Part shown: in pieces, positions 27,163-31,461 of the stretch | Layout: each line of letters starts with the position of its first letter | Numbering within the stretch: the first letter of the stretch is position 1 | Source: Clostridia bacterium | GTDB taxonomy: Bacteria; Bacillota; Clostridia; Christensenellales; CAMQZB01 | Length of the DNA: 44,440 nt | NCBI GenBank assembly: GCA_045579195.1 | Contig: JAZNLR010000018.1 | Location: 1-44,440, forward strand | Reading direction: 5' to 3' | The notes under the pieces: model-generated | Told to the model about the DNA's origin: nothing | Seen by the model: the letters and a program-made list of their open reading frames with translations, nothing else | Database searches by the model: none | Made by a program: the position numbers and the translations under genes

Positions 27163-28389
27163 ATGAAGCTCATCATCATCGGTGGCGGCGCGGCAGGACT
27201 CACCGCCGCAATCGCAGCAAAACGGAAAGCCCCCTTGGCGGACGTTATCATTTTGGAGGGGAACGACCGTGTCGGGCGCAAGCTCAACGCAACGGGAAAC
27301 GGAAGGGGAAACCTCTCCAATCTCGATGCGGATGGCGCACATTACCACGGCGAGGAAAATCTTGCGCGTGGCGTTCTTGCGGCATTTCCGCTTTCCGAAA
27401 CGCTGGATTTTTTCCACAGCATCGGCATCGAGGTGACCGAGGAGGAGAAGAAGCTCTATCCCTGCGGGCTGCAGGCGTCCTCCCTTACGGATGCACTTCG
27501 GTTTGAATGCGAGAAGCTGGGCGTGAAGACCCTCTTGGGCGTTCACGTTCACACCCTTTCCTTTGATGGAAAGAGGAATTCCTTTGTTCTCACCGCCGAG
27601 GATGGCGCAAAGCACGTTGCAGACCGCGTGATCGTTGCAACGGGCGGTGCGGCCGCGCCCCACACGGGTTCTGACGGCAATGGGTACGCGCTGTTGGAGG
27701 GCTTTGGGCACAGCAAGACCGAGATCTTGCCTGCGCTCGTTCAGCTCAAGGCAGACAGCCCTTTTAAGACCCTCAAGGGGATCAAGACGGAGGTTCGCGC
27801 AACGCTGGTGACGGGCGGATCGTACGGCGTGTTCTCGGAAGGGGAGATCCACTTCGCAGATTATGGACTAAGCGGCCCCGTCATCTTTGCGATCTCTTCC
27901 CACGTTTCGCGCGCAAACGCGGAAGGGATGAAGTGTGAAGTTGCGTTGGATTTCTTCCCCAATCTTTCGGTGGAGCGCCTTCGCGAGCGCTTGACCGAGC
28001 GAAAAAACCTCTTGGAAAACAGACCGCTTGAACACTTCTTTGCCGGCCTTTTGAATAAGCAGGTCGGGCGCCTTGCACTCAAGGTGTGCGGATTCGACAA
28101 AGATCGCGCGGTGAAGAGCCTCACGTCCAACGAGATCGAGATCCTTGCGCGCAGGCTCAAGGATTGGCACGTTCCCGTGTCAGGAACGGCGGGCTTTGCG
28201 TACGCTCAGGTGACGGCAGGTGGCGTTCTTCTTGCGGAGTTTTCGGAAACGCTGGAGTCCAAGAAACAAAAGGGGCTCTATGCCGCAGGTGAGATCTTGA
28301 ACGTGGACGGCGATTGCGGCGGCTTCAATCTGCAATGGGCGTGGTCGTCGGGAACGGTCGCAGGACGTGCGGCGGTCTCGGTTTTGTGA
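27163..28389 (+). CDS. BaiN/HI0933-family flavoprotein oxidoreductase
   Basis: GGGAAG, GRKLNATGNGRGN, ATGG, GSDGNG, VTAGGV, GEILNVDGDCGGFNLQWAWSSG. Confidence 0.92.
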   Translation: MKLIIIGGGAAGLTAAIAAKRKAPLADVIILEGNDRVGRKLNATGNGRGNLSNLDADGAHYHGEENLARGVLAAFPLSETLDFFHSIGIEVTEEEKKLYPCGLQASSLTDALRFECEKLGVKTLLGVHVHTLSFDGKRNSFVLTAEDGAKHVADRVIVATGGAAAPHTGSDGNGYALLEGFGHSKTEILPALVQLKADSPFKTLKGIKTEVRATLVTGGSYGVFSEGEIHFADYGLSGPVIFAISSHVSRANAEGMKCEVALDFFPNLSVERLRERLTERKNLLENRPLEHFFAGLLNKQVGRLALKVCGFDKDRAVKSLTSNEIEILARRLKDWHVPVSGTAGFAYAQVTAGGVLLAEFSETLESKKQKGLYAAGEILNVDGDCGGFNLQWAWSSGTVAGRAAVSVL

Positions 28390-28459
28390 AAAAGGGTGCA
28401 TTTTGTTGACAGCTCTGAAAAAAAAGAGTATGATGAAGAAAAAACGAAGGAATTTTGCA

Positions 28460-28537
28460 ATGAAAAAGCTTTTTAACAGCGGATATGCCTATTATTTCCC
28501 CAACGATTACCGTCTGGGTTTTTTGGCGTTGCTGTGA
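28460..28537 (+). CDS. Putative aroF leader peptide, 25 aa: MKKLFNSGYAYYFPNDYRLGFLALL
   Basis: Manual translation; 4 Tyr + 3 Phe; SD-like AAGGA upstream; precedes a terminator and aroF. Confidence 0.75.
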   Translation: MKKLFNSGYAYYFPNDYRLGFLALL

Positions 28538-28574
28538 AAAGAGAGGAAGCAAAGTTCGAAGCGATCGAAACGAT

Positions 28575-28611
28575 AAGCCGACGTTCTCATTCACAGGACG
28601 GCGGCTTTTTT
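28575..28611 (+). terminator. Attenuator terminator upstream of aroF
   Basis: AAGCCG-A-CGTTCT / AGGACG-G-CGGCTT stem followed by a T run, 20 nt before the aroF ATG. Confidence 0.75.
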
Positions 28612-28631
28612 AATTGCAAAGGAGAGATGGC

Positions 28632-29645
28632 ATGATTATCGTATTCAAAAAAGGTGCAAAGAAGGAAAATGTTGAAAGCTTAAAGGCGCGCGTCGAGGGG
28701 CTTGGCCTTTCGGTGCACGAATCACACGGTGAGGAAACCCTGCTTTGGGGACTCATCGGTGACACGAGCACTGTCAACGTCGATCAGCTCGTCGCAAACG
28801 ACGCTGTTGAAACCGTCAAGCGCATTCAAGAGCCGTATAAACAGGCAAATCGCAACTTTCACCCGACCGATTCGGTCATTTCCGTGGGAGGAAAGAAGAT
28901 CGGCGGCGGACACTTCCAAGTTATCGCAGGGCCTTGCTCCATTGAGAATGCGGATCAAATGAACGAGGTCGCCGCTTCCGTGCAGAAGAGCGGAGCGGGA
29001 CTTCTTCGCGGCGGTGCGTTCAAACCGCGCACCTCGCCGTACGCTTTTCAGGGCTTGCACGACGAGGGATTGAAGCTCCTTCTCGGCGCAAAGGAAAAGA
29101 GCGGACTTCCCATCGTCACCGAGCTGATGTCGCCGGAGCATATTGACCTCTTTGAAAACGTCGACCTCATCCAGATCGGAACGCGCAATATGCAGAACTT
29201 TGAGCTTCTCAAGGCGGTCGGCAGGCTCAAGACCCCCGTTCTTCTCAAGCGTGGAATGTCCAACACCATCGACGAATGGCTGATGAGCGCGGAGTACATC
29301 ATGGCGGGCGGCAACGAGAACGTCATCCTCTGTGAGCGCGGCATCCGAACGTTCGAAACGGCGTACCGCAACACGTTGGATCTCTCCTCCATTCCGATGC
29401 TCAAGAAGAAGACGCACCTTCCTGTCATTGTTGACCCGTCCCACGCGGCTGGGATCCGCTGGATGGTCGAACCCCTTTCGATGGCGGCGATCGCGGCCGG
29501 AGCAGACGGCTTGATGATTGAGGTTCACAATCATCCCGAGTGCGCGCTCTGTGACGGACCGCAGTCCTTGACGCCTGACGGGTTCGATCAGCTGATGAAG
29601 AAGATCAGAAAAACTGCAACCTTCTTCGGAAAGGAAGTGGAGTAA
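28632..29645 (+). CDS. aroF: 3-deoxy-7-phosphoheptulonate (DAHP) synthase, type I-beta with N-terminal ACT-like domain
   Basis: IAGPCSIE, GAFKPRTSPYAFQG, QIGTRNMQNF, CERGIRTFE, DPSH; SD AGGAG. Confidence 0.95.
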   Translation: MIIVFKKGAKKENVESLKARVEGLGLSVHESHGEETLLWGLIGDTSTVNVDQLVANDAVETVKRIQEPYKQANRNFHPTDSVISVGGKKIGGGHFQVIAGPCSIENADQMNEVAASVQKSGAGLLRGGAFKPRTSPYAFQGLHDEGLKLLLGAKEKSGLPIVTELMSPEHIDLFENVDLIQIGTRNMQNFELLKAVGRLKTPVLLKRGMSNTIDEWLMSAEYIMAGGNENVILCERGIRTFETAYRNTLDLSSIPMLKKKTHLPVIVDPSHAAGIRWMVEPLSMAAIAAGADGLMIEVHNHPECALCDGPQSLTPDGFDQLMKKIRKTATFFGKEVE

Positions 29646-29731
29646 CAGGGAATCGGGAGTTCTTTTTTAGCAACAATTTCACAGAATTTTACAACATTAT
29701 ACAATGGAATTGACAACATTCCTATGGTAAA

Positions 29732-31012
29732 ATGAAGTTGAAAAACTTGAAACTCGAAGGAATAAGCGAGAAAAAGGAGGCTCTTTTGAAAAAAGATTGG
29801 GAACGGTTGCGTTTTCTTGCAAACAAAAAGAGGGAGCTGGCAAACTCGAAACGAAATGAAGAAATCCTGGAGATGTGGAGGGCGCAAGCGCGCGGCGAAA
29901 GAGCGACCCCCACGGTGCGCTTGCTCTTTTCCAACTTTCCTGACGAGGTCATCGACGCACGGCTTTGCTGTGAGGGAAAGGAGGAGCGCAAGTTGGAGGC
30001 AAGATTGCTGTCTTCCATGGTCGGGCGAGAGCTGTTTGACGATGACACACCCCTTTCCGAAAACTTGGAGATCGGACTTTTTACGCGAGTTTCCCCGTTT
30101 GGTGCGCTTGCAAAGACAACGGCTGCAGCGAATTCCAAAGGATTTCACATTGATCCGCTGACGGATGACATTGAAGCGGACTTCCACCTCTTTTGCGACG
30201 GATCGTTTTCAATCCTCCGAAAGGAAACGGAGGAGTACTGTACGTGGGCAAACGAGATCATCGGAGACATTCTCCCGGCGAAGATTGTCGGAAACTCTCT
30301 TCCCGGCGCGATCACGAATCCGCTTGTTTTCTTGATCGGAATGGAGAATTACTATCTCGCGATGTACGATGCGCCCGAAACGTTGCACAAGATCATGGAG
30401 ATGGCAACAAAGGTCTATCTTTCGTATTACGACACTTTGGAGCGGGAAAACCTGCTTTTGCCGACGAATGAATTTAGCGGAGTCGCACAAGAGTCCTTTG
30501 CGTTCACGGAGGAGTTGCCAAAAGAAGGCCCGACCCTCTCGACAAAACAAGTTTGGGGCTTCTTGGAATCACAGGAGACGACGGCGGTTTCTCCGGAAAT
30601 GTACGGGGAGTTTGTCTATCCCTATCTGGATCAAATGGTTGCGCGCTTCGGGCTTTTGTCATACGGCTGCTGCGAGCGCGTGGACGCGCTTTGGGAAGAT
30701 TATCTTTCCAAGTGGAAAAACTTAAGAAAGCTTTCCGTGTCACCCTTCAACGACGAGCGGAAAATCGGTGAGTTTTTGCGCGGGACAAACGTGGTGTATT
30801 ACAGCAAGCCGCGCGCAGAGTTCGTGACCAACCCGGGCCCCTTGGATGAAGATGCGCTCAAAAAGTACTTCCGCACGGTGGCGGAAAATGCGAGCGGATG
30901 TCTGCTTGAGGTCGCACAGCGTGAGGTGGGAACGATCTTTGGAGATTTTGAACGCGGCAGGAAGTATGTCGAGATCGCCAAGCAGACGATCGACACGTTC
31001 TGGAAGCCGTAA
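29732..31012 (+). CDS. Hypothetical protein, uroporphyrinogen-decarboxylase/MtaA-like barrel
   Basis: GMENYYLAMYDAPE, VSPEMYGEFVYPY, YGCCE, SVSPF motifs. Confidence 0.55.
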   Translation: MKLKNLKLEGISEKKEALLKKDWERLRFLANKKRELANSKRNEEILEMWRAQARGERATPTVRLLFSNFPDEVIDARLCCEGKEERKLEARLLSSMVGRELFDDDTPLSENLEIGLFTRVSPFGALAKTTAAANSKGFHIDPLTDDIEADFHLFCDGSFSILRKETEEYCTWANEIIGDILPAKIVGNSLPGAITNPLVFLIGMENYYLAMYDAPETLHKIMEMATKVYLSYYDTLERENLLLPTNEFSGVAQESFAFTEELPKEGPTLSTKQVWGFLESQETTAVSPEMYGEFVYPYLDQMVARFGLLSYGCCERVDALWEDYLSKWKNLRKLSVSPFNDERKIGEFLRGTNVVYYSKPRAEFVTNPGPLDEDALKKYFRTVAENASGCLLEVAQREVGTIFGDFERGRKYVEIAKQTIDTFWKP

Positions 31013-31026
31013 AAATAGGAGGGAAT

Positions 31027-31461
31027 ATGCAAAAACTGTCTTTGAAAAAGTATCGCAATATGGCCTTGAAGTATTTCGCGGCTGCCGCATTTATTGAGTT
31101 GTTCGGCATCTTTTCGGGGATGCTGGAAGGGCTGGAGATCGAGCTTTCGTTGATCATTGCAACCGTCATCTGCGTGATCTTTCTCGTGATTCCCGGCTTT
31201 GTTTGGCTCGGGTTGTTCTTTTCATACCGCAAAAAGAGCGCGAACGTTGAGCCGAGAGTGGGATACATCAAAAATTGGGAGGCGACGAGAAGGATGGGCA
31301 AGGTCGTGATGATCGTTGACGGCAAGGAGGTCGCAACCCCGGCATATTTTTCGCACAGCGAGGCAAAAGAACTTGTGGGAAAGACGGTGGAATTTGCTGT
31401 CTTTGAAGACGTTTTGTTCCTCTTCGGCGAAGCGGGAGAAAATAACTTCCTTGCGGAATAA
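31027..31461 (+). CDS. Hypothetical membrane protein (2 TM)
   Basis: SD AGGAGG, two hydrophobic segments, followed by a terminator. Confidence 0.7.
   Translation: MQKLSLKKYRNMALKYFAAAAFIELFGIFSGMLEGLEIELSLIIATVICVIFLVIPGFVWLGLFFSYRKKSANVEPRVGYIKNWEATRRMGKVVMIVDGKEVATPAYFSHSEAKELVGKTVEFAVFEDVLFLFGEAGENNFLAE

Follow-up and report, generated by a model that had tools for sequence, protein, structure and literature searches.

The Rfam families Phe_leader and Trp_leader are the names under which the attenuators of the enterobacterial pheL-pheA and trpL-trp systems are catalogued. Here, we compare these and other described leaders with the region upstream of aroF, the gene of a 3-deoxy-7-phosphoheptulonate (DAHP) synthase, in a Clostridia bacterium represented by a metagenome-assembled genome (MAG) of 1.48 Mb in 158 contigs (GenBank GCA_045579195.1). 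The gene lies in a stretch of 44,440 nucleotides (contig JAZNLR010000018.1, positions 1 to 44,440), which is referred to as the window, and all features are on its plus strand. Our reading, to which we assign a probability of about 0.85, is that aroF is preceded by a ribosome-mediated leader-peptide transcription attenuator that senses charged tRNA-Tyr and tRNA-Phe. Such an attenuator had been proposed in a first-pass annotation of the window, and the proposal is supported here because a module of promoter, short upstream open reading frame (uORF), terminator, and aroF recurs in relatives, and because a set of alternative helices can be laid out in the leader. The mechanism of leader-peptide attenuation is summarised in PMC11802643. 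As for pheL-pheA and trpL-trp, the window leader combines a short, putatively translated ORF, a run of codons for end-product amino acids, and an intrinsic terminator with three predicted, mutually exclusive helices (1:2, 2:3, and 3:4), and the stop codon is placed inside segment 2. Unlike these systems, with which the window leader shares no covariance-model similarity at E≤10, it has a mixture of Tyr and Phe codons instead of codons for one amino acid, its target is the DAHP synthase at the pathway entry step, and the host is a clostridial Firmicute.

Analogues at aroF itself are in print for Corynebacterium glutamicum and Acholeplasma, and are compared here by their published descriptions. 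In C. glutamicum, a leader peptide with Phe-Tyr-Phe has been reported upstream of aroF (Mentz et al. 2013, PMC4046766), and the aroR leader is described as responding to Phe and not to Tyr (Neshat et al. 2014, as summarised in PMC11802643). By these descriptions, ribosome stalling on a leader peptide that contains Phe and Tyr codons determines whether a DAHP synthase gene is transcribed, as proposed for the window, but the C. glutamicum system is actinobacterial and has three regulatory codons, compared with 7 Tyr/Phe in 25 codons in the window. The uORFC-13-1 motif upstream of aroF in Acholeplasma (Brewer et al. 2021, PMC8632094) is likewise a candidate uORF with promoter, ribosome-binding site, and start codon directly before a terminator and aroF, for which the authors propose sensing via the speed of Phe incorporation. 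It has been described only from Acholeplasma and environmental sequences (24 representatives), and features a U-run coding for at least one Phe and not a Tyr-rich cluster, which sets it apart from the window leader by description. The T-box riboswitch (RF00230) also responds to tRNA charging and acts on a terminator ahead of Firmicute amino-acid genes, but it binds uncharged tRNA directly, needs no translation, and has no match at the window aroF. For Clostridioides difficile, a premature transcription termination event in the aroF 5′ untranslated region (UTR) is listed with no mechanism assigned in the main text (Fuchs et al. 2021, PMC8237595); the gene and the bacterial class are the same as here, and the short terminated 5′ transcript was seen experimentally. 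His leader peptides were reported in bacilli at a time when such systems were thought to be absent from Firmicutes, as that report itself states (Naville and Gautheret 2010, PMC2965389). In full-text searches of open-access papers, we found no description of a clostridial Tyr/Phe leader at aroF.

The elements expected of an attenuator follow each other closely in the window. A sigma-70-type promoter (TTGACA-17 nt-TATGAT, 28406–28434) matches the consensus at 11 of 12 positions, and its position places the transcription start probably near 28441. It is followed by a Shine-Dalgarno sequence, GAAGGA (28446–28451), with an ATG 8 nt downstream that opens the leader ORF (28460–28537), composed of 25 codons plus the stop codon TGA at 28535–28537 and encoding the peptide MKKLFNSGYAYYFPNDYRLGFLALL. 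Direct reading confirms the Tyr/Phe content given in the first-pass annotation: seven of the 25 residues are Tyr or Phe (positions 5, 9, 11, 12, 13, 17, and 21), and five codons at 28484–28498 form the regulatory cluster Tyr9-Ala-Tyr11-Tyr12-Phe13 (YAYYF; UAU GCC UAU UAU UUC). A further Tyr codon, UAC for Tyr17, is found at 28508–28510. The intrinsic terminator just before aroF, also annotated previously, spans 28575–28611, with a stem (28575–28587/28595–28607) of 12 bp and one mismatch, a loop at 28588–28594, a folding energy of −15.2 kcal/mol, and a run of six U at 28606–28611. The aroF Shine-Dalgarno sequence (AAAGGAGAG, 28618–28626) is unpaired in the predicted folds, and the gene itself occupies 28632–29645.

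Under the proposed mechanism, we infer that the uORF is translated and that stalling on it affects readthrough. With no ribosome on the leader, segment 1 (28469–28489) would pair with segment 2 (28525–28541 in this helix), and the terminator would form. With Tyr and Phe in plentiful supply, the ribosome would reach the UGA stop and cover segment 2, so that the terminator forms and aroF expression is low. Under a shortage of charged tRNA-Tyr or tRNA-Phe, the ribosome would instead stall in the Y9-A-Y-Y-F13 cluster or at Y17 and occupy segment 1, whereupon the freed segment 2 would pair with 28584–28604, block the terminator, and let RNA polymerase enter aroF. The three segments are positioned as this scheme demands. 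Segment 1, the 5′ strand of the anti-antiterminator, overlaps codons 4–10 including Tyr9, so that a ribosome stalled at Tyr9 to Tyr12 would occupy it. Segment 2 (28523–28545) can pair with either of the other two segments; because it includes the stop codon, together with the four codons before it, it would be masked by a terminating ribosome. Segment 3 (28584–28604) overlaps the inner 5′ arm, the loop, and the 3′ arm of the terminator. Helices 1:2, 2:3, and 3:4 (the terminator) are mutually exclusive in sequence, and the predicted layout is of the trp/phe type.

The energies of the two upstream helices compare favourably with those of dinucleotide-shuffled sequences. The 1:2 helix (28469–28489/28525–28541) closes a hairpin at 28462–28547 with a folding energy of −23.6 kcal/mol, and its duplex energy of −18.2 kcal/mol, against a shuffle mean of −11.2 (z −2.82), is equalled or bettered by 1 of 200 shuffles. 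The 2:3 antiterminator (28523–28545/28584–28604) closes a hairpin at 28521–28607 with −23.1 kcal/mol and has a duplex energy of −20.5, against a shuffle mean of −14.5 (z −2.35; 4 of 200 as good). To represent the ribosome, protection of the mRNA was assumed to extend 12 nt beyond the first base in the A-site codon, and the RNA downstream was folded. The untranslated leader adopts the 1:2 helix plus terminator as its minimum free energy (MFE) structure (−41.9 kcal/mol). With the A site at codons 6–9 or 17–18, which includes a stall at Tyr17, the MFE of the full transcript is the antiterminator alone, without the terminator, and with the A site anywhere from codon 19 to the stop, the terminator is back in the MFE. 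Two other measures were set aside: a mask limited to the ribosome footprint gave a terminator probability of at least 0.80 at every codon and is uninformative, since the 5′ UTR could pair across the ribosome, and a forced-terminator ensemble measure saturates near ±1 kcal/mol.

The first-pass annotation had placed the antiterminator elsewhere, in a pairing of 28511–28530 with 28569–28583. This helix does exist, and is the MFE structure (−16.9 kcal/mol) of a transcript cut before the terminator 3′ arm with the ribosome at codons 11–13, but at a duplex energy of −11.3 it is weak, and it does no better than shuffled sequences (z +0.94). The stronger candidate is the 2:3 helix, which straddles the stop codon and fits the predicted masking logic better than the helix first suggested. 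The latter may act as an early-forming helper.

Recurrence of the module in relatives supports the attenuator. A search with the leader DNA in 60 genomes of the same order gave only short chance matches (E ~1e-3 to 1e-2), and because the leader has no relatives at the nucleotide level among these genomes, aroF orthologues were located by protein and their upstream regions read. Within the order, the 30 best-scoring of 62 matching places were used, 29 of them non-self (the best of 61 non-self places). A Tyr/Phe-rich short ORF starting with ATG and followed by a hairpin plus U-tract is present at 20 of these 29 best-scoring loci, and the 20 carriers span 17 of 23 families, with three of three fetched loci in the family of the window organism; MKNVLSNNFYFYFTAYFYGRSSLICG, MKNYANQNFYYFYFFFNKQ, and MNNAVWATKYGYYYYLFTDWGRSVFVV are examples of their leader peptides. 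Together with 79 named loci from genome contigs, this gave 103 aroF upstream regions of at least 400 nt from Clostridia-type genomes. At least 72 of the 103 contain an ATG-initiated ORF of 10–70 codons with at least five Tyr/Phe within eight codons, compared with 1 of 103 reverse complements and 28 of 2060 mononucleotide shuffles. The forward count is a lower bound, as shown by one locus, L040, which is not among the 72 and yet carries MTALKPIHSFHFGFEYGYYYPGNDRADFLCCIGTATRHSQ. The same type of ORF is found upstream of aroF on 50 of 68 metagenome contigs. When candidates with at least four Tyr/Phe in eight codons are included, 78 of 80 have a hairpin plus U-tract 3′ of the uORF stop, and a Shine-Dalgarno sequence precedes the in-frame ATG in 73 of 78 related leaders, compared with 46 of 363 control ATGs. 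The related peptides, from 16 to about 60 residues in length, share little apart from their richness in Tyr and Phe (12.4% and 11.5% of residues, respectively), and sometimes Trp. Carriers include Blautia producta DSM 2950, Anaerostipes hominis, Massiliimalia, and Fumia, as well as many MAGs of Oscillospiraceae, Ruminococcaceae, and Lachnospiraceae.

With counts far above the controls, the leader module exceeds chance, and the window leader belongs to a widespread and apparently uncatalogued family of clostridial Tyr/Phe leaders at aroF. The first-pass annotation had regarded such a system as a rarity among Firmicutes. This part does not stand: the element is common upstream of aroF in Clostridia, and given also the printed analogues in C. 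glutamicum and Acholeplasma, the novelty is lower than was assumed.

Several observations weigh against the attenuator as drawn here, and most of them concern the helices of the window. With the A site at codons 10–16, which include Tyr11, Tyr12, and Phe13, the MFE structure keeps the terminator. A competing hairpin at 28511–28572 is compatible with the terminator, and gives an MFE between −24.4 and −28.6 kcal/mol, compared with −23.1 for the 2:3 helix alone. The terminator 5′ arm, when its pairing was scored in truncated transcripts, gave the z of +0.94 quoted above, and the spacer scores no convincing pairing with the loop plus 3′ arm (z −0.85) or with the 5′ arm (z +1.24). Because two antiterminator tests failed in the window, the p value of about 0.02 for the 2:3 duplex must be read as one of several uncorrected tests, and because of both the competing hairpin and the failed shuffle tests, the helix assignment is a reasoned model and not a demonstrated structure. 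Support for the predicted window helices is moderate, and depends on the test used. On the comparative side, the counts suggest more independent events than there are, since the loci are mutually related and in some cases near-identical. The window cluster itself, with four Tyr/Phe in eight codons, lies at the weak end of the family. Furthermore, the best aroF identity is 77%, which leaves no relative close enough for covariation, and a four-sequence alignment (A1) matches the uORF half of the leader with the terminator half misaligned.

The sequences in that alignment come from the closest aroF relatives (L040, L042, and L043; 75–77% identity). The window cluster region aligns with their leaders at the nucleotide level, with the window stretches GGATATGCCTATTATTTCCC and GGTTTTTTG matching leaders that encode the peptide ...EYGYYYPGNDRADFLCC.... 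Only the L040 contig was matched in a degenerate-pattern search of the genome contigs, and a metagenome search with aroF gave no relative above 74% identity. None of the sequencing runs listed as containing this sequence is an RNA run. Contigs from sequencing runs (X1–X3), examined over 28350–28700, are identical to the window leader wherever they cover it; X1 covers all of the leader, X3 covers 28536–28700, and X2 covers 28641–28700. The sole difference, G>A at 28661, is located within aroF.

Among other explanations is a terminator-based attenuator run by a trans-acting RNA-binding protein or by an unrecognised ligand-binding RNA, with the Tyr/Phe ORF being incidental. The mixed antiterminator statistics of the window, taken alone, would agree with this, and since Rfam covers only described families, a riboswitch of a new type could escape it. 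The Rfam result is blank at the leader: there are no matches over the whole window at gathering thresholds, and at E≤10 the region 28250–28800 yields only BcKCsr2 (E 0.13) and sR44 (E 6.3), both noise far below gathering. Neither scan matches a T-box at aroF, as the first-pass annotation had anticipated, and none of the Rfam amino-acid leader families (Phe, Trp, His, Leu, Thr, and others) is matched in 28250–28800 at E≤10. The same genome does contain six T-box matches, all on other contigs. No TRAP-like repeat was detected at the leader, which, like the lack of a T-box, speaks against control by a known factor of this kind. Likewise, scanning of 20 aroF loci without a strong uORF gave no Rfam matches, and hence no hint of a T-box in place of the leader. 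What also speaks against a protein- or ligand-operated switch is the pattern of conservation. The in-frame Tyr/Phe enrichment, the Shine-Dalgarno sequence, and the start codon are conserved, but the nucleotide sequence is not, which is the signature of a translated sensor and not of a ligand pocket. We therefore consider such a switch quite improbable.

It is likewise quite improbable that control is exerted mainly at the level of translation or mRNA stability, for instance if translation of the uORF made the ribosome-binding site of aroF more or less accessible; the leader has a strong hairpin plus U6 between uORF and aroF, and the Shine-Dalgarno sequence of aroF is free of predicted pairing. 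That the uORF encodes a functional small hydrophobic peptide, with the hairpin ending its own short transcript and aroF expressed from elsewhere, is very improbable, for even though the uORF has a good Shine-Dalgarno sequence and promoter, and aromatic-rich small proteins exist, the peptides resemble each other in composition only and range in length from 16 to about 60 residues, the module is always directly upstream of aroF, and a promoter scan gave no second site in the interval 28611–28632.

For the leader-peptide attenuator, pairing can also be evaluated across the family. The terminator 5′ arm pairs with upstream RNA at a mean of −8.7 kcal/mol when the ribosome is at the cluster, compared with −2.8 when it is at the stop, a gap that reaches 3 kcal/mol or more in 61 of the 78 leaders. 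Relative to dinucleotide shuffles, the mean z for 5′-arm pairing is −1.5, and 30 of the 78 are equalled by no more than 2 of 40 shuffles. A helix that captures the 5′ arm is found at the 5% level in 33 of 78 leaders and one that captures the 3′ arm in 11; either is found in 41. In a 12-member Oscillospiraceae subgroup, a conserved CATCTTTCG in the uORF mimics the CATCTTTGG of the terminator 5′ arm, as read by eye, and in the window, CGUU at 28527–28530 mimics 28582–28585 likewise. A Merdivicinus-like group would offer a further example (CAUCUUUCG and CAUCUUUGG). The arm mimicry in the Oscillospiraceae subgroup and the window hints at a shared design.

A bolder and rather unlikely possibility, which we put forward tentatively, is that the clostridial aroF leaders constitute one old, homologous, and uncatalogued family in which a mimic of the terminator 5′ arm lies towards the 3′ end of the uORF and competes for the 3′ arm, with outcomes that depend on the codon at which the ribosome stalls. 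If so, stalls at Tyr9 and Tyr17 would favour readthrough at equilibrium, and stalls at Tyr11, Tyr12, and Phe13 would not. The element would then be mainly a Tyr sensor with a graded input from Phe, which would match an enzyme that is feedback-inhibited by Tyr and Phe.

Further observations on the related leaders are noted in passing. Many of the leaders L040–L118 carry an F/L-L-C-C or F-C-C motif (UUUUUGUGUUGC-like) a few codons past the aromatic cluster, and these nucleotides recur in the window in another reading frame (UUUUUUGGCGUUGCUG), which looks like conservation of segment 2 RNA rather than of peptide. Two loci (L015 and L016, in genomes G049 and G009) have two divergently arranged aroF copies about 0.6–1.5 kb apart. 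Upstream of one copy lie a Phe-rich ORF of shorter length (MIFFNIMFLQYHNF) and a hairpin with a U-tract, which may represent a Phe-biased leader variant on one paralogue. At L027, L029, and L030, aroF is placed inside an operon after a dehydroquinase-like or shikimate dehydrogenase-like gene without a leader of its own, and a leader, if present, would lie further upstream. Clostridia-type aroF genes are also found on contigs labelled Phocaeicola dorei, thaumarchaeote, Pyramidobacter piscolens, and Paludibacteraceae (L080, L093, L101, and L109, respectively), with a Tyr/Phe leader on the first three and a truncated upstream region on the fourth; these are probably mis-binned contigs in public MAGs. 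The window aroF is 70–77% identical to copies labelled Candidatus Scybalocola, Anaerostipes, and Blautia, and at most 65% identical to copies in the 60 sampled genomes of its own order, so that either its real neighbours are absent from the sample, or the gene and its leader were transferred laterally as a unit.

As for the gene itself, the aroF product is a DAHP synthase with an N-terminal ferredoxin-like regulatory domain. It matches the Pfam families DAHP_synth_1 and DAHP_snth_FXD, and scores 489.5 bits against NCBIfam NF006421, for which the cut-off is 335. In the Thermotoga enzyme of the same type, the ferredoxin-like domain mediates feedback inhibition by Tyr and Phe, and if this applies here, the enzyme and its leader would sense the same end products. 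The genes for chorismate synthase (aroC), prephenate dehydratase (pheA), and prephenate dehydrogenase (tyrA) are located on contigs other than that of aroF. A loose scan of both strands of the 1.48-Mb genome for an aromatic cluster with Shine-Dalgarno sequence and terminator returned 13 matches, among which the aroF leader is the only one at an aromatic-pathway gene, and since the scan yielded no second aromatic leader, aroF appears to be the one attenuated step. Upstream, the leader region is preceded by an HI0933-like flavoprotein gene (27163–28389). Downstream of aroF are two ORFs, at 29732–31012 (426 aa) and 31027–31461 (144 aa), for which no Pfam family and only a sub-threshold CyoA-like NCBIfam match were found. 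A promoter-like site is present at 29678–29705, between aroF and the first of these ORFs, and no terminator was seen in the same interval; leader control may extend to the two ORFs.

Taken by itself, the window represents a modest gain, as one more well-formed example from a poorly sampled lineage. The mechanism of leader-peptide attenuation is textbook knowledge, but the common clostridial version at aroF is absent from the RNA catalogues, and both genome annotation and Rfam miss this putative Tyr/Phe sensor. Its presence counters the rule of thumb that Firmicutes use T-boxes or TRAP for aromatic amino-acid genes. Cataloguing of the family would help to annotate small ORFs and 5′ UTRs of gut metagenomes better, and the family would offer a natural Tyr/Phe-responsive switch for engineering of cultured relatives such as Blautia and Anaerostipes. 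In many gut Clostridia, the committed step catalysed by DAHP synthase appears to be gated by a translated Tyr/Phe sensor.

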